Shown here: positions 21,239 to 39,466 of the stretch, piece by piece
How the letters are laid out: every line of letters starts with the position of its first letter
Position numbering within the stretch: position 1 is the first letter of the stretch
IMG/VR virus record: IMGVR_UViG_3300044780_000040
DNA from: a virus
Strand: one strand, 5' to 3'
Length of the DNA stretch: 46,444 nucleotides
Notes under the pieces: generated by a model
Database searches by the model: none
Told to the model about the DNA's origin: nothing
The model's input: the letters and a program-made list of their open reading frames with translations, nothing else
Made by a program: the position numbers and the translations under genes

Positions 21239-23174
21239 TCTCCCCCGCTAGCTCCGCTCCCGCGCTCGGTAGAGTAGCAACATTCGGATTGAAAGAAACC
21301 TGCGGACCACCGGGTCGGAGTGGTATAACATTGCCCGCCTGTGCCTGCGCAGCGAGCATTTGATCAGGTACAACTTGAATCTTGAACTGATTGATATTCC
21401 GAATCCCAGCCAACTGCGAAATATGTGTGAAAACTTTGCCAATATCGAACTGCATCAATAATTGAGGGAAATTTCTCATCTGCCCCATAATGTTCTGCCA
21501 AAGAGTCGCCATCGCCATTCGATCGACCGGCAGCGCCCCATCGACTGGAACGAAATCGTAATCTCCCATAATGCTTCCCGGATCGACCTGCATAAACCTC
21601 GGACCGGCCATCTGCGCGAGATCACCCACAATCTTGAACTTCTTGTCCATATCATAAAATTGCTGACTATCCGCAACCATTCGCGCGGCGAGCGTCGAGA
21701 TCCCCATCGCACTTATATATTCGGTGATGGTCTTCAATCGATTGACTCCAAATCCCGTACTAGTGCGAACTTCTGTCGCTGTTGTCCGGGATTTGGAGAT
21801 CCCTCCGAACATTTGTTCATTAATTCCAGTAATTCTCTCTCCAATCGTCTGCATTGCCTCCAGGTCAGACATATGGGCTCTTGTAATGTCTGCAACTGGT
21901 ACTTGGTAGAAGAATTTGGTGATGTCTGTTCCATATGCTTCAGGACGGAGTCTGTAAATGAAACCAGGTCCGCCATCCTCCGTGTCATCGATAACAATTT
22001 TGCTCGGATCAACAACGAATTGGTTATTGAGGGCTGCGCGAACATTGTAAAAATGGGAATTAATGAGCCAATCCATAGTTCGTTGTATTGGATCAATAAT
22101 TTCAGGGATTCCTCTAGAATATAATCCGTATCCTTCGATTTCTGTCTCGATGATTGAGAATGGAAACTTTCCATGTGCGTTCCCCAATGGTTCTGCCCCG
22201 AGCAAGACCGCATAATCGGAGCTGATTGTGAAGACCCACTTCTCTGGAAAATCTGAACTTCCAATCTTCCACTCACTCTGAATAAGATCAACATACACTT
22301 CAAAAATATCAATACTTGTAGGATGCTTCAGATCTTCATTCGCCGCGCCCAACGTTTGCTGATACACTCGATCGGGGCGAAGAAGTGCCGAAGAACCTTC
22401 TTGAATCTGCGCAGTGTGAGGGGGTCGGGCGGGTAATCTTCCGACTCCATCCTTAGTATACCAGCCGGCAAACTGTCTCTTTTTGATTTCATTCCATCCG
22501 ATTGTTTTCCGGACATAACAGAATTCTCCCTCTTGGAATCTGTACATCGGATAGTGCGGATCATGGCCGAAATCGAACGGACTGACATTATACACCCTCG
22601 TCCCTTGATACCCAGCAGAGCGGAACGTTTGCTGCACCTTCTTTTCAGAACCCGGAATCGGAAGGCCATCCGGACCGAAAATCATCATCTGCTCTACACT
22701 CGAATACTGAACCTGCTCATTCGCCCAATAATTTCCCAGAATACCACAACCATACTTTCCACTATCATACAACCAAATATAATACGGGACCAGATGTTGA
22801 CCTGTTTCGACCTGATACGAGGTTAAAGCCTCCAATGCACTCACTTGCTGCTCTGTCTCGCCATGTCTGCCACTGAATTGATGCACCGGAGATCGTGAAA
22901 AGAAAACAGACGTCATATAAGTATGGGCGGTCATGAGAGTGGCGTAAGAATACGGAATCTGCATCGTAGTGTAGGTGGTCTGGCCCTTCAATTCCCGCGC
23001 CGAGCGGCGAAGAGCATCTTCATCTTGCTCTTTAAGATAAGCGAGAGCTTTATCTTCCGCCATCTCCCATTGCTTGATTCGATCCGACCGCTTTTGCATC
23101 GAATACTTAACCCTCGCCTCAAGCCTTTGCAAGAGGAAGTTCTCAGTCTGCCTATCAAAGCTTCGCGTTACCAT
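21186..23174 (-). CDS. Portal protein (podovirus head-to-tail connector type)
   Basis: 662 aa, located downstream of TerL. The N-terminal region RLEARVKYSMQKRSDRIKQWEMAEDKALAY...TTMQIPYSYATLMTAHTYM resembles T7-type connector families. Confidence 0.8.
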   Translation of the reverse strand: MVTRSFDRQTENFLLQRLEARVKYSMQKRSDRIKQWEMAEDKALAYLKEQDEDALRRSARELKGQTTYTTMQIPYSYATLMTAHTYMTSVFFSRSPVHQFSGRHGETEQQVSALEALTSYQVETGQHLVPYYIWLYDSGKYGCGILGNYWANEQVQYSSVEQMMIFGPDGLPIPGSEKKVQQTFRSAGYQGTRVYNVSPFDFGHDPHYPMYRFQEGEFCYVRKTIGWNEIKKRQFAGWYTKDGVGRLPARPPHTAQIQEGSSALLRPDRVYQQTLGAANEDLKHPTSIDIFEVYVDLIQSEWKIGSSDFPEKWVFTISSDYAVLLGAEPLGNAHGKFPFSIIETEIEGYGLYSRGIPEIIDPIQRTMDWLINSHFYNVRAALNNQFVVDPSKIVIDDTEDGGPGFIYRLRPEAYGTDITKFFYQVPVADITRAHMSDLEAMQTIGERITGINEQMFGGISKSRTTATEVRTSTGFGVNRLKTITEYISAMGISTLAARMVADSQQFYDMDKKFKIVGDLAQMAGPRFMQVDPGSIMGDYDFVPVDGALPVDRMAMATLWQNIMGQMRNFPQLLMQFDIGKVFTHISQLAGIRNINQFKIQVVPDQMLAAQAQAGNVIPLRPGGPQVSFNPNVATLPSAGAELAGENAESGARSEALGRPSYP

Positions 23175-23526: not shown

Positions 23527-23699
23527 TCTCCGCGTTTTGTCTTCGCATTTCGCGGGCCGGGATCTCCAGCATAGTTTGGATGCTCGAATTCCGCATTCCG
23601 GTCATCCCCGGCAGCTTCAGCCTCTCCCTCTCTCGGATCGGTCCACTTTTTCACCGACTGCTTCCTTTCATAATAAGATTCGAGATCTTTATCCGTCAT
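23523..23699 (-). CDS. Hypothetical small acidic protein (58 aa; below the ORF-track cutoff)
   Basis: My translation is MTDKDLESYYERKQSVKKWTDPREGEAEAAGDDRNAEFEHPNYAGDPGPRNAKTKRGD. Its ATG overlaps the TerL stop (ATGA). Confidence 0.4.
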   Translation of the reverse strand: MTDKDLESYYERKQSVKKWTDPREGEAEAAGDDRNAEFEHPNYAGDPGPRNAKTKRGD

Positions 23700-25222
23700 G
23701 GTGCATTTCTCCTCGCTCTCAATTGGACAATATTATCATTGTCCTCTTCAGTCTCCGCATAAGCATTCGTCAACCCTAAGACTCCCATCGCAGCGAAGTC
23801 GAGAATATCATCAAATTCGACCGCGGGATATTTTGTCCACTGTTCAATAAAAGCTGTGTGACTTCGCCGAATAAAAAGCCTTCCATTTGAAGCCAAACCA
23901 TGCAGGGCGCTCTGAATCCGAATCGGCTTAGCTTTAATGTCATTGAATGCCTCGATCGTTGTCCATTCTTGCCTCTTCATCATTTCTTGTTCGAGAATCC
24001 ACTTGAGCGTCGCCTGATATGCGACCGACTCCACAATCGCCTTATAAGGCCTCCAGCGGTAACGCATTTCGAAGAACTTCGTCACAACCCATGAGGGCGG
24101 CGCGGCCTGCAACGCTTCATATTCTAATAGATAATAATTCCCCCCATGCCGCCTCAGCGCCCCCACGACTTGATAATCTTTCTTCGCAATCTGCTTCTGC
24201 TCAAGACGTTTAACTGGCGGAGGCGCGGGATCGATCGCCAGCACCGTTGTTCCCATCTCAGGGGGCTCATCATAGAAACGAAGCCATTCCTCTTTAAAAA
24301 CTGCGGTCTCACGCGAAATGATTCGGACCTCTTTCTCCTTACTGAAGATCGAGAGCCGATTGAGCGCAATGGCTGCCCGCTTTTCAGCGCGGCGAGTTTC
24401 CGTTGGATGGCGAGCTTCCCACGAACTTTGCTGTTGAGAGACATCGAGGCCCATCGTCTCTTTCGTCCAGCAAGGATAGCGGACTGAGAAAAACTCAGGA
24501 TCTTTTTCCGCAATATGAACAACATCATCGACGGCCTGCGGGGTGTTGAGCATGACGAGCTTTGCATTCGGATTCTCACTCGCTGGAGCCAGAGACCCTT
24601 TAAGACTTCCCATCACAAGATCAATTATCTTTTCTCTTTGCTCGAGTGTGGAGCCATTTTCATCCGTCAGTATATCATCGAGTACAATAAGGTCAGGACG
24701 ATAGTCGTCAAAATTAATGCCACGAATGTTGCCAGTAATACCAGCGCCGAGGACCCAGATAGGATTGACATCAACGCCGTGAAATATCTCAAGTTCTGTA
24801 TCCGTCCATTTTGCGCCGGGGCGCAGACCAAAAGTTGTTGCGAAAGGATCTTGCTTCTCTTGGCCTCCAGCTCCCATCTTCTTTTCAATCCGACTGCGAA
24901 GCCATCGAATAGATCGAACAGCGTGGGGCTCACTTGCTCCGACATACAATATCGTTTTGCTCAAATTAAATGCGACCCGCTTTCCAGTAAACATTCTGAG
25001 CAGTGTAGTTTTCGCCGAATCTCTAAAGCACACCAAATTAACATAGCGCTTCGCGCTATCATTCAAATGAGACCAAATATCCGAATGGAATGGGGCCGGG
25101 GCCTGGCGGGCGGCCTTCGGGAAAAAGGTCTGCACGAACAATTGATCATCGACGGCACAGAGACCGACCAATTCATCTACCGAGACTTTATTCTTCTCTT
25201 TCTCTTCTCTTTCTTTTTCCAT
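23696..25222 (-). CDS. terL: Terminase large subunit
   Basis: 508 aa. There is a Walker-A-like segment (VCFRDSAKTTLL) and a Walker B (PDLIVLDDILTDE). The C-terminal half is nuclease-like (TVLAIDPAPP...). Confidence 0.85.
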   Translation of the reverse strand: MEKEREEKEKNKVSVDELVGLCAVDDQLFVQTFFPKAARQAPAPFHSDIWSHLNDSAKRYVNLVCFRDSAKTTLLRMFTGKRVAFNLSKTILYVGASEPHAVRSIRWLRSRIEKKMGAGGQEKQDPFATTFGLRPGAKWTDTELEIFHGVDVNPIWVLGAGITGNIRGINFDDYRPDLIVLDDILTDENGSTLEQREKIIDLVMGSLKGSLAPASENPNAKLVMLNTPQAVDDVVHIAEKDPEFFSVRYPCWTKETMGLDVSQQQSSWEARHPTETRRAEKRAAIALNRLSIFSKEKEVRIISRETAVFKEEWLRFYDEPPEMGTTVLAIDPAPPPVKRLEQKQIAKKDYQVVGALRRHGGNYYLLEYEALQAAPPSWVVTKFFEMRYRWRPYKAIVESVAYQATLKWILEQEMMKRQEWTTIEAFNDIKAKPIRIQSALHGLASNGRLFIRRSHTAFIEQWTKYPAVEFDDILDFAAMGVLGLTNAYAETEEDNDNIVQLRARRNAP

Positions 25223-27444: not shown

Positions 27445-27986
27445 TGAACAATTAGTACATTGAACGCCTCCGGATCAATCTGCCCAATATGATCGATCAA
27501 GTGACGGGGGCGCGGAGTCTGCACTTCCGGATCATGCGAATGACAAACAGCGAGGGGAACCAATCTTGCATCGACACATAGAGCTTTCTGCAAAACTGGA
27601 ATATAAAGCTTCTCCAATTGCAGAAAGGCATCTGAATTGAATCGAATCTTAATTTCTCCCACAAGAATATGATTCTGATCATAAGAATCAATTAAGAAGT
27701 CTGGTTGGCACCAGAAGTTCTGCCCACTCCGATCGACATAGGAAAACCACGGAGATCGAATCAGGAAGCTTTGGGGGAGCCAATTTAAAACCTTCTCTTG
27801 AAATCTCAGACCTTGAAGCTTTGAGCCTCTCGGCTTGTAATGCACCTTGCTCACGAATGGCGGGCTGTGATCTCTATATGCGCTCAGAATCGGCAAATCT
27901 GGCAAGTGTCGAATATAATGAGGGAGAGGAGAAGCCTCGTTCTGCTTTGACCATGCATTCCTGTATGGCGTGGGCGGATGGACCAT
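27441..27986 (-). CDS. PD-(D/E)xK-like nuclease (putative)
   Basis: WCQPDFLIDSYDQNHILVGEIKIRF contains PD...E-x-K spaced 14 aa apart. The ATG overlaps the TerS stop (TGATG). Confidence 0.4.
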   Translation of the reverse strand: MVHPPTPYRNAWSKQNEASPLPHYIRHLPDLPILSAYRDHSPPFVSKVHYKPRGSKLQGLRFQEKVLNWLPQSFLIRSPWFSYVDRSGQNFWCQPDFLIDSYDQNHILVGEIKIRFNSDAFLQLEKLYIPVLQKALCVDARLVPLAVCHSHDPEVQTPRPRHLIDHIGQIDPEAFNVLIVH

Positions 27987-28621
27987 CAATCCTCTCCCTC
28001 ACTCTCTTCTCCAATTTCAGACTCCTGTCCCGCAACAGGAGACTTCGATTGAAGAGGAGCTGGATTCTTTTTCAGTTCCAATGTCTTCAGATGGGCGCGG
28101 GCGCGAGCGAGACCTTCCGCACTCACGGTCTGCGTCGCATTATTGTTCGTCAAATTGACATTCACTGACGGACTCCCACTTCGTGGGGGTTCGGGACCAT
28201 AACCGAGACGGTCGAGGGAACTTTTTGCAATATCATTCAGAAGGGGAAGGGGAATTGCATCTCTCTTTTTCTCTAATGCGGTGAGCGTATGGTCGAGGGC
28301 GGCTTCGGCGACTTTGACCAATTTGTCGGTCAATTTGTCTTTCAAAGTTTCTTCGAAGGCTTCGCGGCGCTGGCGATAGCGAGCTTTGAAGAGATCAGAA
28401 TTATAGATGGTCGAGACGGTGCCGTAGGATCTTCCGAGCCGCAGGGCACAATCTTTTATTGTTGTTCCAGGATGGCTTAATAGATCATCGATTATTCCAT
28501 CGTACCAAGCCATCGCGGTCGTGGGCCGCCAAAGCCGGCCAAAATCTCCGAACACATTGGTGATCGGCTTCACAGAATCAAGGTCAGCGGTGAAATCTTC
28601 AGGGAGCGGATTTTGTGTCAT
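27986..28621 (-). CDS. Terminase small subunit (putative; N-terminal HTH followed by a coiled coil)
   Basis: This is the first gene of the minus-strand operon. TIKDCALRLGRSYGTVSTIYNSDLF looks like an HTH, followed by a helical region and an acidic tail. Confidence 0.45.
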   Translation of the reverse strand: MTQNPLPEDFTADLDSVKPITNVFGDFGRLWRPTTAMAWYDGIIDDLLSHPGTTIKDCALRLGRSYGTVSTIYNSDLFKARYRQRREAFEETLKDKLTDKLVKVAEAALDHTLTALEKKRDAIPLPLLNDIAKSSLDRLGYGPEPPRSGSPSVNVNLTNNNATQTVSAEGLARARAHLKTLELKKNPAPLQSKSPVAGQESEIGEESEGED

Positions 28622-28754
28622 ACGGGAATGATCACTCCAATTGGCGGGGGTGGGGGTGGAAGGCGAAAATGGGGCTATTTAACTCTCAATTCTATTCGCG
28701 CACCGGAAATGGCGTTCTCGGGGGGCGAGGCGGCCTGAGAGGGGGCCGCCCCCC

Positions 28755-28842
28755 TTCGGGATTCTAGAATTCGGGCCACCCGAATTTCAGGCCAGCCGAA
28801 TTACGGACTTCCCGAATACATGAGCCCCTCAAGTAATTCGGT
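28755..28842. promoter_or_regulatory. Array of six CCGAA(T)/(A)TTCGG boxes in the divergent intergenic region
   Basis: TTCGGG at 28755 and 28770. (C/G)CCGAAT at 28779, 28795 and 28811, with 16-bp spacing. ATTCGG at 28836. AATTCGG-gccac-CCGAATT (28768-28786) is a perfect inverted repeat. Confidence 0.55.
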
Positions 28843-29039
28843 CAGCTTATGGGGTTTGGTATTCTGCTCAGCTGACTGGCTCAGCCAATGCCTGGGCTCT
28901 GACCTTGTAACAATTCGTGATCAAAGATTTTCATTCACGACTCGACTCCGCAGATGCGCGGAGTGATTATGTCTTTGGCGGTTCGCCGCCGGGCTCTTTG
29001 ACATTGTGAACTCTCACCCCCGAACTAAAAGGAACAGTC

Positions 29040-29678
29040 ATGTCTGATACAACCACGAATACCGAAAAGAAGCGCGAAGCCATTGCATCCCGCGAATGGA
29101 TCGATGAAAACGGCAAGGCCCTCAATTCCGGCGAGGAAAAACAGGCCGTCGGCTTCCGCTACATTCACCTCCCGAGCGCCAAAAAGGCCGACCCGAATTA
29201 CAATCCGGAGTCGAGCGGCCAACCGCCCGCAGGCACCTTCTTTGACTACGTTTGCGGCGAAGCCGGTCAACCCGGAACCATGCTGGCCATTTTTGGCGGT
29301 CTGACTCTCGCAGGGAACGTTGTCAACTCCGCAGTCAACGGCCCAAAGGGCGACCCCACGATCAACCCCATTTCACTCGTCGAAGCGCGATTCAAGGAGA
29401 TCGACGACGGCGTTTGGGCCGATCGCGCGGGTGGAGTCGGTGGAGTTCGATACGACAAGGACAAGCTTGCGGCCGCAATCGCCGCAGCCAAGGGCGAAAA
29501 AGACGTCTCGCCCTACTTGGCGAAGATGGATAATAAGGTCGATCCAAAGACCGGCGCAGTCGTTGCCAGCGATACGAAGGGAGCAATCTCTTACGGCGCC
29601 TTCGCGCTGCGGAATCCCGCGGTTAAGGGCGAATACGACAAACTGACCGGAGGCGGAGTGCAGCTCACTTCCCTCTGA
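29040..29678 (+). CDS. Hypothetical protein (212 aa), first plus-strand gene
   Basis: AAAGGAA lies upstream of the ATG. The composition looks globular. No family was recognised. Confidence 0.7.
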   Translation: MSDTTTNTEKKREAIASREWIDENGKALNSGEEKQAVGFRYIHLPSAKKADPNYNPESSGQPPAGTFFDYVCGEAGQPGTMLAIFGGLTLAGNVVNSAVNGPKGDPTINPISLVEARFKEIDDGVWADRAGGVGGVRYDKDKLAAAIAAAKGEKDVSPYLAKMDNKVDPKTGAVVASDTKGAISYGAFALRNPAVKGEYDKLTGGGVQLTSL

Positions 29679-29723
29679 TCCCCCCAGATGGCGCCGCGCA
29701 AATGCGGCGCCAAGGAGGCCCAA

Positions 29724-29849
29724 ATGTACCACGACGACCCATCGCGCGGCGGGTGGCCGAGCGTACTGTTGCAAATCGGCATCTTCGTTGCACTTCTGCT
29801 GCTCTTTTCGGACGAACTCCCAAATTTCCTCGGGAGATTCGCCCAATAG
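29724..29849 (+). CDS. Small membrane peptide (41 aa; below the ORF-track cutoff)
   Basis: AAGGAGG lies 5 nt upstream. My translation is MYHDDPSRGGWPSVLLQIGIFVALLLLFSDELPNFLGRFAQ, with one TM segment. The stop abuts the terminator. Confidence 0.5.
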   Translation: MYHDDPSRGGWPSVLLQIGIFVALLLLFSDELPNFLGRFAQ

Positions 29850-29872
29850 CGCCCTCCGGGGCGCTTTTTTTT
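29848..29872 (+). terminator. Rho-independent terminator
   Basis: agcgccc-tccg-gggcgct stem-loop followed by T8. Confidence 0.85.
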
Positions 29873-29959
29873 GTCCAGATTCGCGCTCACACCGACAGGT
29901 TCGCGCTCCAGACACCGACAGGCGCACTTCGCGAGTTCAGATCCCCCGCCAGCTCAGCT

Positions 29960-30014
29960 GGCCCTCGAGTGACCCTCAAACCACCCTCACAGGACCCTGA
30001 CATGACCCTTACTG
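29960..30014 (+). repeat. Five 11-bp-phased iterons with core (G/C)(G/A)CCCT
   Basis: ggccctcgagt / gaccctcaaac / caccctcacag / gaccctgacat / gacccttactg, starting at 29960, 29971, 29982, 29993 and 30004. Confidence 0.8.
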
Positions 30015-30078
30015 CCTTCATGGTTGAGTCACCGACTGATGCACTTATTCGCATCCCTCTAGACCTCGAGACCACCAA

Positions 30079-30111
30079 AATAGGCACATTATCAGCCTGA
30101 TAATGGCACCA
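30079..30111 (-). promoter_or_regulatory. Copy b of the 33-nt palindromic motif (minus strand TGGTGCCATTATCAGGCTGATAATGTGCCTATT)
   Basis: Contains the 9-bp perfect palindrome cattatcag-c-ctgataatg (30087-30105). It lies in non-coding DNA between the iteron arrays. Confidence 0.6.
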
Positions 30112-30140
30112 TTTTACATCCATCCCCTCCCTCCTTCTTA

Positions 30141-30207
30141 CTCTTATATACTTTTTTATTTTTTTTTTTTTAATATATAGAATAGAATATATATAGATGA
30201 ATATCAG
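30141..30207. other. AT-rich tract (candidate DNA-unwinding element)
   Basis: ctcttatatacttttttatttttttttttttaatatatagaatagaatatatatagatgaatat, including a T13 run. It is preceded by the polypyrimidine stretch catcccctccctccttctta. Confidence 0.6.
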
Positions 30208-30244
30208 AGACCCCCCGGCTGACTCCCCCTAAGATGAGGCAGTC

Positions 30245-30299
30245 AGGGTTAAGTTAAGGTCTTGTGAGGGTCTTGGCAGGGTCTTTTTAGGGTCCCACG
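30245..30299 (-). repeat. Five 11-bp-phased iterons, the reverse complement of the left array (AGGGTC core)
   Basis: agggtt at 30245, aaggtc at 30256, and agggtc at 30267, 30278 and 30289. Confidence 0.8.
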
Positions 30300-30320
30300 A
30301 CTAAACGCAACGAGTTAGGG

Positions 30321-30377
30321 ATGCATGTGCATGCATGTTGCAATGCACCAATGCAAATCTGCATACCTGCCATGCAT
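30321..30377. promoter_or_regulatory. Cluster of seven TGCA / ATGCA(T) cores upstream of the first early gene
   Basis: atgcatgtgcatgcatgttgcaatgcaccaatgcaaatctgcatacctgccatgcat. Confidence 0.4.
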
Positions 30378-30463
30378 TTGCCCCCCTTGTAAAATGGCCC
30401 ATTTTGGCGCACACTTTTCCCACGGGCGATCTGCGTCCGAATTCAGCTCCATGGGGACCTCAA

Positions 30464-30670
30464 ATGCTAATCCAGACTAAAGCGGATCTCTTCAAAGGTC
30501 TATTTCCATCCCTCGACTCCTGCACCATCTCGAACATCGGGAAACACTTCGCAGACCTGGTCGACTCGATCGACCCCGACACCCTCTTCGACCTAAACGA
30601 CGACAACCACATCGTTTTAATCTTCAGCGACGGCTCCAGCGTTGTGGTCGCCGGCCCGGAGTGCCACTAA
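30464..30670 (+). CDS. Hypothetical protein (68 aa)
   Basis: GGGGA lies upstream of the ATG at 30464. The upstream part of the track ORF lies in the TGCA-rich non-coding DNA. Confidence 0.55.
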   Translation: MLIQTKADLFKGLFPSLDSCTISNIGKHFADLVDSIDPDTLFDLNDDNHIVLIFSDGSSVVVAGPECH

Positions 30671-31125
30671 TGCCTCTCGACATCAAAACACTCCGCCGAA
30701 ATCCGGGCGATCAAATGTTCACCCATTTCGACCCCGCGACCGGCGCCCAAACCTGCTTCGCCGTCACTCTGATCCGCGAGCACACCTCGCGGCTCGGAGA
30801 TCAATACATCTTCTCCGCTCCAATCGAGCCGCGAATGGCAAAAATGATTCTCATGAATCGGGGAATCGAGCGCCCCCGACTCAAGCGAGCAATCAGGACC
30901 ACCTACTACGACCCCCTCTTATACCTCGAGATGCCCGACGGCTCCCACTTGCTGGCCGACGGCTCCCACACATACGTCGCCATGTTTTACAAAGGGATCA
31001 CTTGGGCGAAGAGCTTCGTGGTCCCCCCTTCAATCTGGAATCAATTCACCATCTCCGGACTCCCCGCATGGGAATCGGAAGAACACCTCCTTCAATCCTT
31101 CAGTGGAGATCCCGCCAATGACTAA
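30670..31125 (+). CDS. Hypothetical protein; possible ParB/Srx-fold
   Basis: TAATG overlap with the upstream gene. PLLYLEMPDGSHLLADGSHTYVAMFYKG weakly resembles the ParB-like DG.HR segment. Confidence 0.5.
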   Translation: MPLDIKTLRRNPGDQMFTHFDPATGAQTCFAVTLIREHTSRLGDQYIFSAPIEPRMAKMILMNRGIERPRLKRAIRTTYYDPLLYLEMPDGSHLLADGSHTYVAMFYKGITWAKSFVVPPSIWNQFTISGLPAWESEEHLLQSFSGDPAND

Positions 31126-31780
31126 GAACGCCATCGCGAACCGAATCGGATCGCTTCAAGCTCCCCAACTGGACTACATCCTGCTTGACGGCTCATCTTC
31201 CATGATGACCAAATGGTGGGATTCTCTCGGCGCCCTGCAGGGCATGGTCGACGTCATGAAGGCCCAGAACATCAACTCCCACGGAATCATCCAGGTCTTC
31301 GATACCCACGACCTGAACTACGTTGCTCGCAACTCGACTCTAGACACTTGGCAATCCTTCCGTGACGACCCCATCGGCGCCCACTGGGGCGGTACGCCCC
31401 TCTACGACGCCATTAACCTTATGGGCCGCCAACTTCGCGACCTCGATCCCAAGAACGCCTCGATCGTCATCGTTACTGATGGCGAAGAAACCTCGAGCAA
31501 ATACACCACCCACGTTCAGGCAAAAGCCATCTTGGACTGGTGCAGAGCAAAAGGCTGGGCCGTCACCTTTATCGGCGCCGACTTCGACAACAACCAGCAA
31601 GCGAAACTTTTAGGCGCCAACGAATCCAATTCGATCGGGGTGCGAAAGGCCAAACTGCTTGAAGCCGGCAAAGCCTTCGGCCAGAAACGCGCCCGCCACG
31701 CCCTCTTTGGCGAAGACATCAATTTCACCGAAGACGAGCGAAAGAAATTCGGTGGCTTTTTGGAGCACAAAAAAGACTAG
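31118..31780 (+). CDS. von Willebrand factor type A (vWA) domain protein
   Basis: MIDAS motif DGSSS in YILLDGSSSM, then GGTPLYDAI and IVIVTDGEET. GGAG lies 9 nt upstream of the ATG at 31118. Confidence 0.75.
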   Translation: MTKNAIANRIGSLQAPQLDYILLDGSSSMMTKWWDSLGALQGMVDVMKAQNINSHGIIQVFDTHDLNYVARNSTLDTWQSFRDDPIGAHWGGTPLYDAINLMGRQLRDLDPKNASIVIVTDGEETSSKYTTHVQAKAILDWCRAKGWAVTFIGADFDNNQQAKLLGANESNSIGVRKAKLLEAGKAFGQKRARHALFGEDINFTEDERKKFGGFLEHKKD

Positions 31781-31835
31781 CGAAATCGCGGCGTTAGCCG
31801 CGATCTAAGGGATTGGCATTCCCTTACTGAAGAGC

Positions 31836-32093
31836 TTGCCAGAGGAATTGATGGGGATCAAAATGGATAATAAAGAACGAACACAGGCCGCCAACGCCCT
31901 CATACAATGGTTTAACTCCCAAGACATCAGCCAAGCTGACGCCGAAATCGTAATGCTCAAAGTGACCGCGAAGATCCTGAACCGCCGCTTTGACCGAACG
32001 AACCCCGCGAGCGTCACCGCGGCCTTAGACGAACATCAGCGAATCCTCGCCCACGAGACCATTGAAGCCATCTACAATGAGAAGAGAAAATGA
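31836..32093 (+). CDS. Hypothetical protein (start uncertain: TTG 31836, ATG 31851 or ATG 31863)
   Basis: ORF whose stop overlaps the next ATG (ATGA). Confidence 0.5.
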   Translation: MPEELMGIKMDNKERTQAANALIQWFNSQDISQADAEIVMLKVTAKILNRRFDRTNPASVTAALDEHQRILAHETIEAIYNEKRK

Positions 32094-32716
32094 CCGACGA
32101 ACTTCCGAAACAAGAACTTCTCATCAAACTGCTCAAGATGACCACGAGCAATAATGATGGCGAAGTCCTAGTCGCCGCCCGCAAAGCCAACGCTTTGCTT
32201 CAGAGCGCCGGCTGGGACTGGGAGAAACTGATCACCGGCAAAATTGTCATTGTTGAAGATCCCTTCAGCAAAATCGACACGCCCGACAACTTTGCCCGCA
32301 ATCCCCCGCGCGCTTATCAGCCCCCTCAACCTCCCAAGCCATCCGCGCCTCCTCCGCCGCGCCAAACTCAAAGCACCAATCCCCCGTGGGCTCAAGGTCC
32401 ATCTCGCGGCTCCCCGCCGCCGAACGTTAAGGCTCCGCCTCCACCTCCGCCCCCCAAGGCGGCGAAGGTCCCCTATTCCGACAAGCCGAACAAATTCACA
32501 TCATGGTGCTTCTGCTGTGGGGACACAGTCCCCTCCGACATGGGATTCATCATAAATCCCTCAAAATACAACTCCCGTGCCCCGAACAAGTTCGTTACCA
32601 TCTGCACCTCTTGCAATAAAGCGAATGTACCTATCGGGCGCTCTGGCGCCCCCCGACAAAAGCCCCTCTCCGCCGCTCCCGGCGGAGTCAAGACTCCATC
32701 TCTCAACGATCTCTAA
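32090..32716 (+). CDS. DUF2786-like N-terminal domain, Pro-rich linker and C-terminal Zn-ribbon; ends TPSLNDL
   Basis: LLIKLLKMTTSNNDGEVLVAARKANALLQSAGWDW fits the DUF2786 pattern. WCFCCGD...ICTSCN looks like a zinc ribbon. Confidence 0.6.
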   Translation: MTDELPKQELLIKLLKMTTSNNDGEVLVAARKANALLQSAGWDWEKLITGKIVIVEDPFSKIDTPDNFARNPPRAYQPPQPPKPSAPPPPRQTQSTNPPWAQGPSRGSPPPNVKAPPPPPPPKAAKVPYSDKPNKFTSWCFCCGDTVPSDMGFIINPSKYNSRAPNKFVTICTSCNKANVPIGRSGAPRQKPLSAAPGGVKTPSLNDL

Positions 32717-32731
32717 AAGGGATAAGAACTC

Positions 32732-33139
32732 ATGCAAAATCCCCAACAAAAACCAACAATGTCCGACAGATCAGAAATGATCCACGACTCTTACGTCATG
32801 CATATTCATAACCAGAAATGCTCCAGTTGCGGCCATTTAGAGCGCTTCAATCACTTCTATGAAGTCTGGATACACCCATCCAAGACCCGACTCACCGGCA
32901 TGAAGGATCTCCGGCCCGCCAACTCACTGAAGCCGAAGTTCTCCGTCACATACATCGACCTGCCTCCCCGCCCGATCCCGGTCTGCACCGAATGCGTGAA
33001 GCTGATCGAGCGAGAAGACCACATGATCATCACTGCGAACCCGGCTCAGTGGGCCGAGACCCTCAAGCGCAAATACGCCCCGGCGCCTTCGACTCCCGAC
33101 AAACCCGTAAAGACCACTCCAACCCTGGACCAATTGTGA
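32732..33139 (+). CDS. Hypothetical Zn-ribbon protein; ends TPTLDQL
   Basis: CSSCGH...VCTECV forms a CxxC pair. Confidence 0.6.
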   Translation: MQNPQQKPTMSDRSEMIHDSYVMHIHNQKCSSCGHLERFNHFYEVWIHPSKTRLTGMKDLRPANSLKPKFSVTYIDLPPRPIPVCTECVKLIEREDHMIITANPAQWAETLKRKYAPAPSTPDKPVKTTPTLDQL

Positions 33140-33396
33140 TGGCAAACGAATTTAGCGTCTACCAATTCTTCAAACCCATCACCCCTCAAGACGAGGGCCT
33201 CTACGAACGGGTACGGTCATTCGTCTCTTCGAAAGAAGCCGTCGAGGCCTTCGTCCACTTCACGACTTCGGTCGGCGCCCGCATGGGCTTCGTCGAGCGC
33301 GTCATCATCACCGACGGCGGCGACTCGACAGTCGCCGAATGGACCTACGGCAAAGGCATAACATTCCCGCTGGAGGCCCAAGATGCTCCCGACTAG
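33139..33396 (+). CDS. Hypothetical protein (85 aa)
   Basis: The ATG overlaps the upstream TGA (TGATG). The sequence begins MANEFSVYQFF... Confidence 0.55.
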   Translation: MANEFSVYQFFKPITPQDEGLYERVRSFVSSKEAVEAFVHFTTSVGARMGFVERVIITDGGDSTVAEWTYGKGITFPLEAQDAPD

Positions 33397-33610
33397 ATCC
33401 CAGAAGATCCTTATGCTCCTCGAACACGACGAGGACGACATCCGCACAATGGCCGAGATGCGTGCAAAACGCCTCGCTCGACTGATCGAACTCGAAGCTC
33501 CCGACTTCATAATCGCAAACGAGCTTCTCATGACGATGGAGGCTATTGAAGCCATCTTCCGGAAACACGACTTTGACCCCTTCGAAGACGAGCGGGTTTT
33601 CCATGACTGA
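33383..33610 (+). CDS. Hypothetical acidic protein (75 aa)
   Basis: GGAGG lies 6 nt upstream of the ATG. Confidence 0.55.
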   Translation: MLPTRSQKILMLLEHDEDDIRTMAEMRAKRLARLIELEAPDFIIANELLMTMEAIEAIFRKHDFDPFEDERVFHD

Positions 33611-33830
33611 ATATCGCACATTCTTCTGCCTCATCCGAGAGAATCCTTTCAGGGTCTACTTTCTCGGATGGGGCTTCGAGCGCCCTCGGCGCGATGAATC
33701 TCGCAAGCCGCGCTCTTTCGACTCCGAGATCGCCGCCCGCGAGATTAAAAAACACTTGCGGGGCGAACCTGTCTTAATCGAGAGACGAAGCAAAGTGCTC
33801 AAGCGAATGAAAGAAGATTACGATGTCTAG
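33603..33830 (+). CDS. Hypothetical basic protein (75 aa)
   Basis: ATGACTGA overlap with the upstream stop. Confidence 0.5.
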   Translation: MTEYRTFFCLIRENPFRVYFLGWGFERPRRDESRKPRSFDSEIAAREIKKHLRGEPVLIERRSKVLKRMKEDYDV

Positions 33831-34122
33831 AACTTACGTTCTCCCCCCACACCCACACCTTCATGAATTGGAGATTCGCGCCCACGAGAACGTAATCTAT
33901 TTCCACACGAACGGCCGTTGCTTTGGCCTCGACTACGAGATGGCCAAACAGCTTCGCGACGGCCTCACCGCAGTCCTGAGCGGCGCCTTCGACCGCGCCG
34001 TCAGCCAGACCTTCTTACAACTTCAAGAGGAGAGAGAAGCCCGAAACAAAACCATTCAGACTCAGACTACGAATCCAAATCCTTCTTCCCGAAACACCAA
34101 ACCGACACTGGACCAGTTATGA
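33823..34122 (+). CDS. Hypothetical protein; ends KPTLDQL
   Basis: 99-aa ORF overlapping its neighbours by a few nt. Confidence 0.55.
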   Translation: MSRTYVLPPHPHLHELEIRAHENVIYFHTNGRCFGLDYEMAKQLRDGLTAVLSGAFDRAVSQTFLQLQEEREARNKTIQTQTTNPNPSSRNTKPTLDQL

Positions 34123-34325
34123 GACGGCTTGACAAACGAATTCGTGAATTGCGCAGTGAGATCCAAATCATCACCCAAAAAGAAATATGTTTGGAGGCAG
34201 AAAGAACCGCTCTCATAGAGCTGTATAAGGAACATAATGACAAGAAAACGCAGACACCAACTAGTGATCGAGGTGGAATGCCTCGACCCACAAGGCCAGC
34301 GTCAGGCCCAAGATCGAGTTCATAA
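34119..34325 (+). CDS. Hypothetical coiled-coil protein (68 aa); its tail overlaps the next ORF
   Basis: ATGA overlap with the upstream stop. MRRLDKRIRELRSEIQIITQKEICLEAERTALIELYKEH is followed by a low-complexity tail. Confidence 0.4.
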   Translation: MRRLDKRIRELRSEIQIITQKEICLEAERTALIELYKEHNDKKTQTPTSDRGGMPRPTRPASGPRSSS

Positions 34326-34464
34326 CTGGTTCGAGACCTTCGGCCACACTGCTTGCTCCCACGGTTTTGTCTTTAAGACTGTGGGAGTAATGACTGGGAA
34401 GCAGATCGCCTCCCACATCCGAGTATCCCGCAACCACGAAGAGGAAGATGAGGCACCAGAATGA
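34237..34464 (+). CDS. Hypothetical protein (75 aa)
   Basis: AAGGAA lies upstream of the ATG. Globular-looking composition. Confidence 0.5.
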   Translation: MTRKRRHQLVIEVECLDPQGQRQAQDRVHNWFETFGHTACSHGFVFKTVGVMTGKQIASHIRVSRNHEEEDEAPE

Positions 34465-34805
34465 GCGCAATGGACCACTTTATGTCGATCGACCGTCAAC
34501 TTCAGGGAATGCGCGAGCATTTCGAATCCGAAAGGAAATCCCTGATGGACCAACTATTCGTCGCCAGAGCCGAAGCCCAACTGGCGAACGAACAACTCCA
34601 GCGCGCCGTTGAAGCCCGCGCCCACGCCGAGCGAATGACAGTCCGCCTCTTGACCCAATTCGCAACAGTGGCCTTGGTTTTCGACGAAGCCCGCCATGTC
34701 GCCGAAGACACCGGCCTACTTCAACCGAATGTGAAACCTGAAGTAGCCAAAGCGGTCGAACAAGGTCTACTCGAAAAGCTCGGCGAACTGTCCGGCGAAA
34801 GGTAA
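34461..34805 (+). CDS. Hypothetical coiled-coil protein (114 aa)
   Basis: ATGA overlap with the upstream stop. Confidence 0.55.
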   Translation: MSAMDHFMSIDRQLQGMREHFESERKSLMDQLFVARAEAQLANEQLQRAVEARAHAERMTVRLLTQFATVALVFDEARHVAEDTGLLQPNVKPEVAKAVEQGLLEKLGELSGER

Positions 34806-34808
34806 AAA

Positions 34809-35282
34809 ATGTCCGACATCCTCTACAAGCCGCGCGTTTACTTCGCCTCTGCCTTCGACCGGCACGGGGTCGGAAGAATGCTGAGCGAAGACCCCCAATG
34901 GGCTTTCGTTCATTGGACCTCGACCTGGATCACCAAGACCTATCTCGAGGCCGTCTCTACGCCTGAAGAATTCGCTGACCACTGGACTCTAGACTTCAAA
35001 GAGATCCGGGACTCCGACATTCTAATGCTCTATGGTCGCGAAGCAATGCCCCGACTTAAAGGCGCGCTTGTAGAGTGTGGGGTCGCAATCGCGAGCGGCC
35101 TCAAAGTCCTCGCAATCGGTCTGGACGTTTCAGTGCATACTTGGGCTCACCATCCCGCAGTGCATCGAGTAAACACCCTCGCCCAGGCCAGAAATCATTT
35201 ATATTCCTTCACCATATCTGCGAGACCCCGCAGACCAGAAGAGAAGAAACCCAATGCCAAAACCAATGAAACTGACAATTGA
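34809..35282 (+). CDS. Nucleoside 2-deoxyribosyltransferase-like protein
   Basis: RVYFASAF...DFKEIRDSDILMLYGREAMPRLKGALVECGVAIASGLKVLAIG fits YLAG...D..I..sD.l.......G...E.G.A.a.Gk.V, with a candidate catalytic Glu. Confidence 0.45.
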   Translation: MSDILYKPRVYFASAFDRHGVGRMLSEDPQWAFVHWTSTWITKTYLEAVSTPEEFADHWTLDFKEIRDSDILMLYGREAMPRLKGALVECGVAIASGLKVLAIGLDVSVHTWAHHPAVHRVNTLAQARNHLYSFTISARPRRPEEKKPNAKTNETDN

Positions 35283-35472
35283 AATTGAAGAGAAGCTCTT
35301 CGGCCCCGTCTTTGCGAAGATCGACCGGATGGACGGAGTCATCTCTATCCATCTCCACGGCCGGGGCGCCTTGACCACCACGGCGAAGTCACCAGTTAAG
35401 CGAGCCCCGTGGGGCTCGAAGACCAAGGGCGGAAGACCCATTAAGACTCCGAAGCGCGCGGTGAAGAAATGA
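35254..35472 (+). CDS. Hypothetical basic protein (72 aa)
   Basis: ORF with a 29-nt overlap with the upstream gene. The start is uncertain. Confidence 0.45.
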   Translation: MPKPMKLTIEIEEKLFGPVFAKIDRMDGVISIHLHGRGALTTTAKSPVKRAPWGSKTKGGRPIKTPKRAVKK

Positions 35473-35840
35473 CCTATTATCGCGTGCTTCGCACGTATCG
35501 CTTCATCGACAAAGACCCCGTTTGTGACAGAGTCAAGACGGTGGTCCAAGATGAAGGTTTGGAGAAGCGACTCCAAGTCGTCGCCGACTTGGCTGGCCTG
35601 AACATCAATACTGTTCGCGCTTTGCTATTCGGAGGGACCAAATCCCCCCAAAACCGAACTATCATGGCGATCATGACTTCGCTCGGCTACGAACACTCTT
35701 TCGCCAAATCCCGCAAACTGAACGTGGACGAAGAACTCGAATTCGCCCGCGCCTATAATAAAAAAGAGAAAGCTCGAATCCAAGGGCTAAAGAGCTCAAA
35801 ATCCCGCAAAAAGAAACAACGAAGAAAGGAGAAGCTTTAA
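35469..35840 (+). CDS. Putative DNA-binding (HTH) protein with a Lys/Arg-rich tail
   Basis: ATGA overlap with the upstream stop. VADLAGLNINTVRALLFGGTKSPQNRT looks like an HTH. The C-terminus is KSSKSRKKKQRRKEKL. Confidence 0.4.
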   Translation: MTYYRVLRTYRFIDKDPVCDRVKTVVQDEGLEKRLQVVADLAGLNINTVRALLFGGTKSPQNRTIMAIMTSLGYEHSFAKSRKLNVDEELEFARAYNKKEKARIQGLKSSKSRKKKQRRKEKL

Positions 35841-36043
35841 TGTTTGTCGGCTTAACTGGCCACCAACTCGACGCGATGATCCACGCCGCCATCGCTGAAT
35901 CCAAGAAGTACACCGATCAGGCAGACGCGCGAAGTGCGAACTACCCGATCCATATGACCGCGGCGTTTATAATGGGCTCTATCGCTGTCATGCTTTTAGA
36001 AGCCAGAAAGGTACGCGACGATGAAACTGAAGCTGACGATTAA
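35840..36043 (+). CDS. Hypothetical small membrane protein (67 aa)
   Basis: TAATG overlap with the upstream stop. HMTAAFIMGSIAVMLL is a hydrophobic segment. Confidence 0.5.
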   Translation: MFVGLTGHQLDAMIHAAIAESKKYTDQADARSANYPIHMTAAFIMGSIAVMLLEARKVRDDETEADD

Positions 36044-36206
36044 CATCGACGATCCCTCTGAGGAAGATCCTCAAGAGATCATGAACCGCTACACCGCAAT
36101 CATAGACGAAGCCCTCGACAACGCCCTCAAAGAGGAAGCTGTCGACTACCTATTGACTTGCGAAGAAGTTTCCGACGAACCAACGTCGCCCGCAAAACCC
36201 GAATAG
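36021..36206 (+). CDS. Hypothetical acidic protein (61 aa)
   Basis: ORF ending 8 nt before a terminator hairpin. Confidence 0.4.
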   Translation: MKLKLTINIDDPSEEDPQEIMNRYTAIIDEALDNALKEEAVDYLLTCEEVSDEPTSPAKPE

Positions 36207-36213
36207 CACCTTT

Positions 36214-36245
36214 CTGGGAGGAGAGCCCCTCCTCCCAGCCTTTTC
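36214..36245 (+). terminator. Rho-independent terminator
   Basis: Perfect 10-bp stem ctgggaggag / ctcctcccag with a 5-nt loop, followed by ccTTTTct. Confidence 0.7.
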
Positions 36246-36260
36246 TATCTGGAGAGTAAG

Positions 36261-36686
36261 ATGACCCGCTCGAAGCATATGCCTCTTAGCTCCTTCGGTG
36301 CAGAACTGCAAGAAGTAATGCGTCAAGGCGCGAATAAAGAAATCCGTATCACCTTCGACACCGAAGCACTAGCGACCAGATTCTTGCACCGGATCAACAC
36401 CCTTCGCGTCGCAATGAAGCGCGAAAAGCATCCCGACTGGGAACAGCTATACCGCTGTAGCGCCCGAAAAGACGAGCAAGATCCCAAAATTCTCATAGTC
36501 GCCCCCCGCGACTCCGAATTCCTACCAGCACTCAAATCCGCCGGGATCGCAGTCGTTGAACCAGAAATCAGTGAATACAAAGTTCCAACCCCTGCTCCCG
36601 ATTCGGGTGGGGTCGAAGACTTTCTTGGAGAGCTTCGTGACGTCACAACTGTACCGAAAAAGACCCCCGGTCTCGACAAGCTCTGA
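36261..36686 (+). CDS. Hypothetical protein (141 aa); ends TPGLDKL
   Basis: GGAGAG lies upstream of the ATG. This is the first gene after the terminator. Confidence 0.6.
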   Translation: MTRSKHMPLSSFGAELQEVMRQGANKEIRITFDTEALATRFLHRINTLRVAMKREKHPDWEQLYRCSARKDEQDPKILIVAPRDSEFLPALKSAGIAVVEPEISEYKVPTPAPDSGGVEDFLGELRDVTTVPKKTPGLDKL

Positions 36687-36732
36687 AATACTTATCGAGA
36701 CCTCGAATTTTCATGTTGATCGTGGCTTAATT

Positions 36733-36765
36733 TGGGGCCATTATCAGTGCGATAACAGGCCCATT
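36733..36765 (+). promoter_or_regulatory. Copy c of the 33-nt palindromic motif (TGGGGCCATTATCAGTGCGATAACAGGCCCATT), 19 nt upstream of the RHH-like gene
   Basis: Intergenic between 36686 and 36785. TTGATC lies 17 nt upstream of CATTAT, so a sigma70-type promoter could overlap the motif. Confidence 0.6.
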
Positions 36766-36784
36766 CTATCTCGAGTTCACTAAA

Positions 36785-36991
36785 ATGAGCCGCCAGAAGA
36801 CCCCCGAACCTTACGTTCAACAGAAGGTATCTTTTCCCGCAACCCTCTTAGCTCGCTTCTCACGTTTCCATTGGGACCCGGTCTTGAATAAGATGGAGTA
36901 CGGTGCAATTTCGCGCGTTATGACCGACTTGTTGACCGACTACGTAAACAGACGTGAGAATCCAGAACCCGAAAAGGAGAAGACCACTTGA
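36785..36991 (+). CDS. Putative ribbon-helix-helix (Arc/CopG-like) DNA-binding protein
   Basis: 68 aa. QQKVSFPATLLARFSRF is a beta-strand-like segment, followed by two predicted helices. Confidence 0.35.
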   Translation: MSRQKTPEPYVQQKVSFPATLLARFSRFHWDPVLNKMEYGAISRVMTDLLTDYVNRRENPEPEKEKTT

Positions 36992-37221
36992 CCCAGATTA
37001 TGGACTCTTACGAGCACCTTAATTCTTGGGACCCGGTTAAGCTCTTCGAGCGCCGGTCCGCTTTGATCGGCGCCGCTCCGAATGGCGATTTTAAGCAATT
37101 GAGCGATGAAGCTTTGCAAGAATTAGTGGCAATCGCCCGAGTCTTGCGAAAGAAAACCTCCCCCGCAGCCCGCGTCTCTGGCGGAAAGAAAGCCATAACG
37201 CCAACCCTGGACGTTCTGTGA
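36988..37221 (+). CDS. Hypothetical protein (77 aa, TTG start); ends TPTLDVL
   Basis: AGGAG lies 8 nt upstream of the TTG. Confidence 0.5.
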   Translation: MTQIMDSYEHLNSWDPVKLFERRSALIGAAPNGDFKQLSDEALQELVAIARVLRKKTSPAARVSGGKKAITPTLDVL

Positions 37222-37865
37222 TGTTTCTAGACCTTCCAACATTCGTATTCCTGAATGGACCCACCGACGCAGGGAAATCGACTCTAGCATCTCTTATAGT
37301 CGATTTAGACCAACACACGATGGTCGAATCTCTCGCCGAACCAATCCGTCAAATGATATATGGGACCTTCTTTCCAGAAGAGGGTCCCATCGATTATTCT
37401 TTCGACCTTCGTGACTCAAAGACGAAAAGAGAAAACCTATTCACCCTCGCAAAACTGAACTTCGAATCAAGACCCGACGACGAAATCCCTCCCGCCGACA
37501 TCCGCGACACCATGATCGACTTCGCCGACGACTTCATGAGAGCCAAATTCGGCACAGAAATCTTCGGCCGGCTTCTCTTGAAGCGTTGCCTCGAACAACA
37601 ACAGTTCTACAAACACTTCATCATTGACGACGTTGGTTTCACCGACGAGGTGAAGTTCATAGTCAACTTCGTAGGCCCCGACAACTGCCATCTGATCCGA
37701 ATCCACAGAGCTGGCTTCGAATTCCGCGGAGACAACCGAAACTACATCTCTCTCCCAGGGGTCCAGACCCTAGACCTCAATAATAATGGGGACCCCGACG
37801 AGATGTTAGACACGCTCGCCGCCGAATTTCGCGCCGCCGAACCTCCCACATTGGACACCCTCTAA
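37221..37865 (+). CDS. P-loop (deoxy)nucleotide kinase-like protein; ends PPTLDTL
   Basis: Walker A in FVFLNGPTDAGKSTLA. Its size and architecture resemble phage dNMP kinases. The ATG overlaps the upstream TGA. Confidence 0.5.
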   Translation: MFLDLPTFVFLNGPTDAGKSTLASLIVDLDQHTMVESLAEPIRQMIYGTFFPEEGPIDYSFDLRDSKTKRENLFTLAKLNFESRPDDEIPPADIRDTMIDFADDFMRAKFGTEIFGRLLLKRCLEQQQFYKHFIIDDVGFTDEVKFIVNFVGPDNCHLIRIHRAGFEFRGDNRNYISLPGVQTLDLNNNGDPDEMLDTLAAEFRAAEPPTLDTL

Positions 37866-38113
37866 TGTCTCTAATCGAACTAATCGTAATGCGTCTTTCA
37901 GACATGCACCGCATGCACCCCGAGCAGATCACCTCACACTGCTCTAAATGCGGACATGAAGTCGGGATCTATCCCTCCGGCCAGCGTGTCTTGAAAGAAC
38001 ACCCCTCCACCCGAATAATCTGCCAAATCTGCCGAGGCGACCGCCCCGACATCGCAATCCTCGCCCCCGGCGCAGAGCACGAAATCCTCGAATCCAAGGA
38101 TCGAAAAGAATGA
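37865..38113 (+). CDS. Hypothetical Zn-ribbon protein (82 aa)
   Basis: CSKCGH...ICQICR. TAATG overlap with the upstream stop. Confidence 0.55.
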   Translation: MSLIELIVMRLSDMHRMHPEQITSHCSKCGHEVGIYPSGQRVLKEHPSTRIICQICRGDRPDIAILAPGAEHEILESKDRKE

Positions 38114-39364: not shown

Positions 39365-39466
39365 AGAAGAGTGTCTCGGCGCGGGAGAGAAAGCTCTCCC
39401 CGCCTGCTCAATCGGAATCGGACCTTTCGGGTCGGTTTCCGAGACCTGTATTCCGAGGAGATATTT

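Follow-up and report, generated by a model that had tools for sequence, protein, structure and literature searches.

Mirrored, 11-bp-phased repeats around an AT-rich core: a conserved candidate replication origin at the start of the early arm of podophage genomes

The early arm of an uncultured soil podophage genome begins at a compact element in which two inverted arrays of short repeats, each strictly phased, face each other across an AT-rich core. Related phages keep this layout with repeats of other sequence, which are again mirrored within each genome. Such clade-wide, mirrored and co-varying repeats indicate that the element is a conserved composite binding platform, used by one or more phage-specific proteins that bind DNA and oligomerise. 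Among the functions that a platform of this type might serve, we tentatively place first a replication origin of the SaPI/P4 kind, opened by a self-loading initiator-helicase, on the grounds of SaPI-like anatomy, P4-like iterons and a winged helix predicted in a DUF3987 protein of the phage. The general kind of element, short iterons around an unwinding element, is already known; new are its podophage setting, the strict mirror phasing, the extra conserved modules, the separation from the candidate initiator gene and the clade-wide spread in uncultured soil podophages. To our knowledge, hardly any origins or packaging signals have been mapped in uncultured soil phages, and none of the literature searched on this phage group (the tf, Kuura/Tiera and CRP-810 papers) describes the element.

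Results

The analysed stretch of 46,444 bases (henceforth termed the window) is a complete podophage genome, given as a rotation of the circularly assembled metagenome contig JGI Ga0456090_0000002, the end of whose record falls at window position 31638. The genome consists of two divergent arms. One, read on the minus strand between 28621 and 2640, contains the structural and packaging genes, among them those for an SU10-like major capsid protein (18615-19856), the portal (21186-23174) and, at 23696-25222, a T7-like large terminase (phrog_38, E=1e-58), whose T7 RNaseH-like domain scores below the Pfam cut-off. The other, on the plus strand, contains the early and replication genes; it begins at about 30464, crosses the end of the window and finishes at 2207. 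Among its products are a PD-(D/E)XK nuclease, a Sak4-like ATPase, a ParB-N/methylase fusion, a split PolA and a DUF3987 P-loop protein. The arms are separated by a 418-bp promoter region and two small plus-strand genes (29040-29678 and 29688-29849); a strong terminator and the element follow in that order.

As judged from the major capsid protein, the closest cultured relatives of this phage are distant: identity amounts to 42% with Vibrio phage VS-ABTNL-3, 39% with Microcystis phage Mel-JY34 and about 26-30% with Caulobacter phage Kuura, a Desulfofustis phage and LUZ24-like Pseudomonas phages. Neither megablast nor blastn found a phage record with nucleotide similarity. Across 28601-30700, ten contigs are 100% identical, so that this region offers no microdiversity to exploit. 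The gene directly upstream of the element (29040-29678, plus strand) is strongly conserved and encodes a protein of 212 aa; its confident AF2 model (pLDDT 84) has no fold match in PDB or BFVD, and a profile search against PDB sequences gave no match either, for which reasons the protein was dropped as a candidate initiator or terminase. Contigs that carry its nearest relatives (77% identity) end short of the element, as do the TerL-anchored IMG/VR loci.

On its left, the element, which is untranscribed, is bordered by an intrinsic terminator at 29848-29872 (plus strand), a GC hairpin (stem 29848-29865) with a T8 tail that closes the small upstream plus-strand genes. Its right border is the early promoter region (30367-30415, plus strand), which is overlapped by an operator-like palindrome, AAAATGGCCCATTTT, at 30391-30405 and precedes the first early ORF, starting at 30464. 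The TTGACA...GGCCCCAAAAT motif of this promoter is conserved in three related loci (L005, L007 and L108).

Within these borders, the left array (29960-30014, plus strand) comprises five 11-bp units with the core (G/C)(G/A)CCCT, which reads GGCCCT at 29960, GACCCT at 29971, CACCCT at 29982 and GACCCT again at 29993 and 30004. The right array (30240-30294, minus strand) is its reverse complement and likewise counts five 11-bp units, with plus-strand cores of AGGGTT at 30245, AAGGTC at 30256 and AGGGTC at 30267, 30278 and 30289. Reading the sequence confirmed every core in both arrays as placed by the first-pass annotation, a model's commentary on the bare sequence, and the exact 11-bp spacing that it had claimed is borne out by reading as well as by TRF, which delimits period-11 arrays at 29971-30009 and 30258-30294. 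At a lag of 11, self-identity reaches 0.71 in the left array and 0.65 in the right. Taken together, the two arms form a 56-nt inverted repeat (29962-30017 versus 30237-30292) with 73% complementarity. The spaced pair RACCCT-N5-RACCCT has three matches in the window, all of them within the element, against 0.01 expected; this excess, along with shuffle and lag tests, led us to reject a chance origin of the arrays. Single GACCCT hexamers are not enriched elsewhere (30 found genome-wide versus 21 expected, six of them inside the element), and the array repeats are absent from the remainder of the genome, including the late promoter region.

The arrays are separated by a spacer of 235 bp that holds several further modules. 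A perfect 8-1-8 palindrome, ATTATCAG-C-CTGATAAT, lies at 30088-30104 and is flanked by GGCAC on either side. The first-pass annotation had called it a palindromic operator copy: the palindrome is real, yet it is the only one of its sequence in the genome and hence not a member of an operator family. It is followed on the plus strand by the pyrimidine run TCCCCTCCCTCCTTCTT at 30123-30139, which had been drawn as 30121-30140 and is interrupted there by an A at 30122. The 67-bp AT-rich core (30141-30207), with T13 at 30159-30171 and TATATA/TAGAAT flanks, has the extent and composition claimed for it and is a candidate unwinding element: no 60-bp duplex in the 46-kb genome is less stable than that at 30144-30203, with a z-score of 5.6 compared with 3.2 for the runner-up. 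Directly behind the core, a C-box (GACCCCCCGGC / CCCCCCGG; 30209-30220, plus strand) was recognised by reading the sequence. The C-box is absent from the first-pass annotation, as are two sets of plus-strand direct repeats near the left array, namely ACACCGACAGG at 29889 and 29912 (29889-29929 in all), found by a repeat search, and the 17-mer CACCGACWGRYGCACTT, whose copies (the first at 29913, the second at 30030-30046) bracket the array. Analogous paired repeats of 16-22 bp occupy the same place in the related loci L005, L007, L020 and L025.

Several simple explanations of the region were considered and set aside. Two ORFs do overlap it, one of 78 aa on the minus strand (29887-30123), which is contained in the source annotations, and one on the plus strand (29702-30100, 132 aa). 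More than 80 related loci contain no homologue of either, so that the original statement of no credible ORF stands and the element is rejected as a coding region. A structured RNA or tRNA was likewise rejected, with no Rfam match and no tRNA found. A consensus scan revealed no sigma-70-like promoter between the arrays. Involvement of host DnaA or IHF was discarded for lack of enriched sites: the one DnaA box with a single mismatch, at 30045, is at chance level for the genome, and a search for the IHF consensus yielded nothing above chance. An attP or telomere-resolution site was dismissed because the annotated proteins include no integrase or protelomerase.

To place the element in a wider context, we scanned metagenomes for loci anchored on the VWA-domain early protein (31103-31780), which yielded 80 related loci, all from soil-type metagenomes. 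Where the upstream sequence sufficed, a homopolymer of 8-27 nt, made of T or rarely of A, lies between terminator and early promoter. It is embedded in TATATA-like sequence, with short C-rich repeats on its left and their reverse complement on its right. We then aligned the left flank locally to the reverse-complemented right flank and scored the result against dinucleotide shuffles, in a set of loci that included soil metagenome contigs as well as Vibrio, Microcystis, Caulobacter and Desulfofustis phages. The flanks are related as inverted repeats in 19 of the 21 related loci (z 3 to 22), and direct similarity of left and right flanks was not significant in the same type of alignment. Conservation in related genomes, which the first-pass annotation had proposed as a check, is thus found for the layout; the repeat sequence itself varies by lineage.

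The variation follows a clear pattern. Repeats read GACCCT, GGGCCCT, CCTCAAT, GTACCC or GAGTC according to lineage, and each is mirrored within its own genome. The period is 11, 13 or 14 bp by lineage and equal on both sides within a genome: a lag of 11 nt gives the best self-similarity on both flanks in six lineages (the window, L007, L014, L020, L024 and L108), as does a lag of 13 nt in L029 and L042, and a lag of 11 is best in 4% of random genome pieces. L014 and L108 also carry 5+5 units. Palindrome and C-box are common to lineages whose repeats differ; the former is kept 40-80 bp before the homopolymer in related lineages, and a CCCCGG(C) box follows 40-135 bp after it in many relatives. 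The cultured phages show the same design with their own parts, such as 7-bp AATTTTT arrays around CCCCCC..T8..CCCCCC in Vibrio phage VS-ABTNL-3, 41-nt inverted arms around T9 in Mel-JY34, an A17 core in the Desulfofustis phage and a T13 core in Kuura. In every relative, the element is located directly upstream of the early promoter. The arms of the relatives are 50-115 bp long and match at 65-75% of positions, and on reading the alignments these matches are mostly gathered at the periodic cores. This concentration suggests protein sites rather than a selected hairpin, and we consider a hairpin or cruciform unlikely.

As a candidate for the iteron-binding initiator-helicase, we propose the DUF3987 P-loop protein of the early arm (419 aa; 948-2207, plus strand), based on its predicted structure. 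The family of this candidate helicase has more than 3,700 database relatives. In the AlphaFold model, the ATPase core is poorly defined and a helical region is confident, as is a C-terminal winged helix at residues ~339-400 with the order H-S-H-H-S-S (pLDDT 84-93). This C-terminal domain superposes on small winged-helix DNA binders with Foldseek probabilities of 0.9-1.0. The top whole-chain Foldseek matches are weak and nearly all MCM subunits, and no Foldseek match of either kind attains E<=0.001. At the sequence level, similarity to P4 alpha is marginal (BLASTP E=0.019), a profile search against PDB sequences gave no match, no homology to solved Rep structures was detectable, and no primase domain was recognisable. 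Reading an alignment of 32 homologues shows the winged-helix segment to be one of its more variable parts, and the predicted recognition helix to be rather acidic.

Discussion

Replication origins of SaPIs (Staphylococcus aureus pathogenicity islands) contain 6-12 penta- or hexanucleotide iterons around an AT-rich centre, half of them on each side and in opposite directions, and are recognised by the C-terminal winged helix of Rep, a self-loading helicase for which one hexamer per side has been proposed (PMC9371898). The element described here resembles this arrangement in its ten hexanucleotide cores, divided into 5+5 inverted copies, and in its AT-rich centre with oppositely oriented iterons on both sides, and the phage also encodes a P-loop protein for which a C-terminal winged helix is predicted; the number and size of its cores fall within the SaPI/P4-type range of 6-12 short (5-8 bp) iterons. 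It differs in that the SaPI origin lies directly downstream of rep (PMC9371898), whereas the candidate initiator gene (948-2207) is some 17 kb away from the element (29960-30294) along the early arm. A further difference, which counts against an origin, is that the 235-bp centre holds palindrome, pyrimidine run and C-box besides the 67-bp AT core, i.e., conserved modules beyond the needs of the simple SaPI model.

P4 alpha is an SF3-type P-loop primase-helicase with a C-terminal DNA-binding domain. The P4 origin (record NC_001609) provides a second parallel, with 8-bp type-1 iterons spaced by 10-11 bp in short arrays of both orientations. Unlike the element, however, P4 arrays are arranged as 3+1+2 without mirror symmetry, and P4 replication needs a second cis region (crr); the DUF3987 protein, for its part, departs from P4 alpha in its missing primase domain and only marginal similarity. 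Classical plasmid and lambda iteron origins are more remote, since they employ direct iterons of 17-22 bp at a spacing of about two turns and combine Rep or O with host DnaA, in contrast to the 11-bp units in inverted arrays and the chance-level DnaA and IHF sites found here. Inverted initiator sites next to an AT-rich unwinding region, with two helicases loaded head to head, are also characteristic of HSV oriS, the SV40 and papillomavirus core origins and archaeal ORB/DUE origins. The likeness to these systems and to their initiators (HSV UL9, SV40 T antigen, papillomavirus E1 and archaeal Orc1/MCM) is one of logic only, as hosts and proteins are unrelated and site numbers differ.

If the element is an origin of the SaPI/P4 kind, its 6-bp cores would be occupied by a protein of the phage, one copy per helical turn along a single face of the DNA, with five copies to a side and the two sets placed in opposite orientation around the AT/T13 core. 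The binder would most likely be the DUF3987 ATPase, acting through its C-terminal winged helix. Two initiator-helicase assemblies could then melt the core and start two divergent forks, which PolA would extend, and the conserved palindrome and the 17-mer repeats may bind accessory factors. We regard the origin proposal of the first-pass annotation as partly supported: the architecture and the clade-wide conservation speak for it, but the GC-skew inflection, whose absence had been named as grounds for refuting it, does not materialise. Cumulative skew does not change direction at the element: in both arms the plus strand is rich in C, which makes the skew uniformly negative and, as an origin locator, uninformative, and a bidirectional origin in mid-circle is therefore not visible in composition. 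Uniform skew would be compatible with an origin at this position only if the genome ends adjoin the element or if the skew has another cause; in the Vibrio relative, it simply follows transcription. An origin is hence our best hypothesis, short of established fact. Another idea, that the repeats are primase sites, started from the right-array core GGGTC, which equals the recognition sequence of T7 gp4; it was dropped because relatives keep 6-9-bp cores of other sequence and no T7-type primase was found.

The mapped genome ends of related phages, which have a terminal repeat in this region, argue against an origin and lead to the main competing explanation, a site at the concatemer junction where terminase recognises the DNA or the terminal repeat has its boundary. 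We consider this somewhat doubtful overall. A packaging or boundary function fits the position of the element equally well. On this view, an oligomeric small terminase would occupy the phased repeats on both sides and place the T7-like large terminase so that it nicks opposite strands; the genome ends, together with a short direct terminal repeat, would then form within or beside the central region. A suitable protein might be the product of the first late gene (211 aa; 27986-28621, minus strand), a small-terminase candidate with the HTH-like segment TIKDCALRLGRSYGTVSTIYNS that is homologous to the first late gene product of Mel-JY34, to Vibrio PVS_06 and to part of the annotated small terminase of Kuura. 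Among the roughly 10 pairs compared, its HTH segment is nearly alike in L024, L007 and L037. The repeats of these three differ, which might count against this binder, but all cores share a C-tract. T7-like large terminases such as the present one usually go with short exact terminal repeats, and LUZ24, with the same two-arm layout, has a 184-bp repeat in its divergent late/early region. In phage T7 itself, a CCTAAAG array with a period of 13 bp, the period also seen in two of our relatives, is located directly inside the 160-bp terminal repeat and upstream of the early promoters; its copies are all direct, without mirror symmetry and without an AT-rich homopolymer core. The conservation of the palindrome across lineages with different repeats parallels the lambdoid phages, in which cosN is conserved and cosB variable, and the constant junction of the element with the start of the early arm places it in the DNA expected to enter the cell first.

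Mapped ends from two phages bear on this question more directly. Phage tf has a 186-bp terminal repeat in the divergent region, with a left end of 5'-CCCCGG (PMC3517423), and this end resembles the conserved CCCCCCGG box. For Kuura, a terminal repeat of 606 bp has been mapped with PhageTerm (PMC9959647). One end of the Kuura repeat is flanked by inverted copies of the motif AACTGCCC and precedes the T13 of the equivalent element by 57 bp; the other lies 9 bp after a T-run (T7), which a CCCCCGGC box follows. Given the unequal distances of the boundaries from the two T-runs, the module does not define the cut position. Moreover, non-coding DNA amounts to less than 1 kb, so that proximity of ends to the element is weak evidence, and the combination of extreme AT-richness with strict mirror symmetry is more typical of origins than of known pac or cos sites. 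Contig ends of independent assemblies (30118, 30207, 30247, 30431, 30613 and 30779) do not converge on a common end and were, given these inconsistent positions, rejected as a guide to genome ends.

Origin and packaging functions are not mutually exclusive. A dual-purpose hub at the concatemer junction, which couples initiation physically to end formation, appears improbable to us on present evidence, but has the appeal of explaining the skew: with an origin beside a genome end, one fork would copy nearly the whole genome and leave a uniform strand bias. In such a hub, the mirror arrays would direct two helicase hexamers onto the AT core, and the same complex, or the palindrome and C-box modules, would set the terminal-repeat boundary cut by terminase. 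We give a little less credence still to a nucleoprotein complex that regulates or organises the early operon, or to a plasmid-type centromere, in which an oligomerising protein would coat both arrays and loop or wrap the DNA, thereby switching early transcription or segregating the genome in the way of ParR on parC of plasmid R1. Dam and Gerdes reportedly described parC in 1994 as two sets of five 11-bp repeats, and by analogy the strikingly equal count and period (2 x 5 x 11 bp), with protein reportedly bound once per helical turn, would suit a centromere. However, parC consists of ten direct repeats that flank the par promoter next to parM and parR, none of which applies to the inverted arrays here; Pfam and PHROG searches found no ParM, ParA, TubZ or RHH protein among the neighbours, and no integrase or plasmid-maintenance gene was found. 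Regulation would agree with the invariable position upstream of the early promoter and with the operator-like palindrome that overlaps it, but there is no promoter-like site between the arrays, the core does not read as a conserved -35/-10 pair, and the confinement of the repeats to the element, with none at the late promoter, is likewise unfavourable. Least probable, in our view, is a T5-like signal that pauses DNA ejection at the inner edge of a terminal repeat with pre-early genes. The T5 injection stop region is rich in repeats and palindromes, small genes in early orientation with their own terminator (29040-29849) lie just upstream of our element, and in Kuura such a gene sits within the terminal repeat that ends beside it; against this, there is no sign that the upstream genes of the present genome lie in a terminal repeat, and the podophage pauses studied so far, those of T7, are not sequence-specific.

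Whichever function applies, mirror-phased repeats, a homopolymeric AT core, palindrome and C-box together make a sharply defined, easily recognised cis-site that shows where the early arm starts in a large group of phages. As an origin, it would extend self-loading helicase origins of the SaPI/P4 type to lytic-type podophages with PolA replisomes and supply a sequence rule for locating origins in metagenomic phage genomes; as a terminase site, it would reveal where the genomes of the whole clade end and how they are oriented. In either case, the lineage-specific repeats with their mirrored co-variation constitute a natural specificity code that can be tested in vitro, and the three cultured relatives Kuura, VS-ABTNL-3 and Mel-JY34 permit experiments.

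Sequence conservation and variation around the element

Ten contigs drawn from different JGI and Logan samples (L090-L099) are 100% identical to the window across the 2.1 kb that surround the element (window 28601-30700); the phage population is clonal across samples. Among related loci, the homopolymer of the AT-rich core differs in orientation: L107 carries A12 on the early-sense strand (3724-3735) at the place occupied by a T-run in other lineages, and shares the downstream flank TAAGACCTCTATATATA with L059 (about 3201), so that the homopolymer strand can flip while the remainder of the element keeps its orientation.

The early promoter region lies at 30387-30415 and reads TTGTAA / aatggcccattttggcg / CACACT, the counterpart of the motif TTGACA-AnnGGCCCCAAAAT...-CAtCnT that is kept in three related loci (L005, L007 and L108). 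Its spacer holds a perfect palindrome, AAAATGGCCCATTTT (30391-30405). Since the -10-like hexamer is dissimilar to TATAAT, the promoter sequence suggests the use of an unusual host sigma or of a phage factor.

Strand composition

Along the whole length of the window, plus-strand GC skew is negative on both divergent arms, at -0.136 over the late genes (2640-28621) and -0.119 over the early genes (30464-46444). The early arm therefore has a C-rich and A-rich coding strand, a composition likewise found in the early genes of six related loci. In contrast to this uniformly negative skew, the Vibrio relative, phage VS-ABTNL-3, displays an ordinary, transcription-linked skew.

The upstream protein and terminase-related features of relatives

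Directly upstream of the element, the window encodes a 212-aa protein (29040-29678) that is strongly conserved: over 100 clusters share at least 60% identity with it. AlphaFold models the protein with confidence (pLDDT 84), and searches of PDB and BFVD returned no fold match beyond weak BFVD matches. These include a 177-aa viral protein, equal in length to PVS_50, which adjoins the element of the Vibrio phage.

In Caulobacter phage Kuura, the annotated 'small terminase' (L088 750-2045) comprises 431 aa and looks like a fusion of homologues of two window proteins, the 211-aa HTH protein and the 182-aa endonuclease-I-like protein. The 184-bp terminal repeat of LUZ24 (L087) has GGGGAAT(AT)|CCC at both boundaries (181-190 and 45432-45446), a near-palindromic sequence that could be the terminase cut signal. 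Some twelve GGGTAT/ATACCC motifs, pointing either way, are scattered over the repeat and its flanks.

Other genes of the window

The last late gene (2640-8627, minus strand) encodes a 1995-aa protein without a Pfam match; giant genes (1358-1894 aa) occupy a similar position in relatives, where GenBank labels vary between structural protein and methylase. An ORF at 41657-43027 fuses a ParB N-terminal domain to an N6/N4 DNA methyltransferase, with no accompanying partition ATPase. DNA polymerase A is divided across the window ends into two ORFs (44145-45974 and 18-929) about 490 nt apart, the first combining an N-terminal uracil-DNA-glycosylase-like domain with an exonuclease domain; the polymerase of VS-ABTNL-3 is likewise split, with an intervening ORF.
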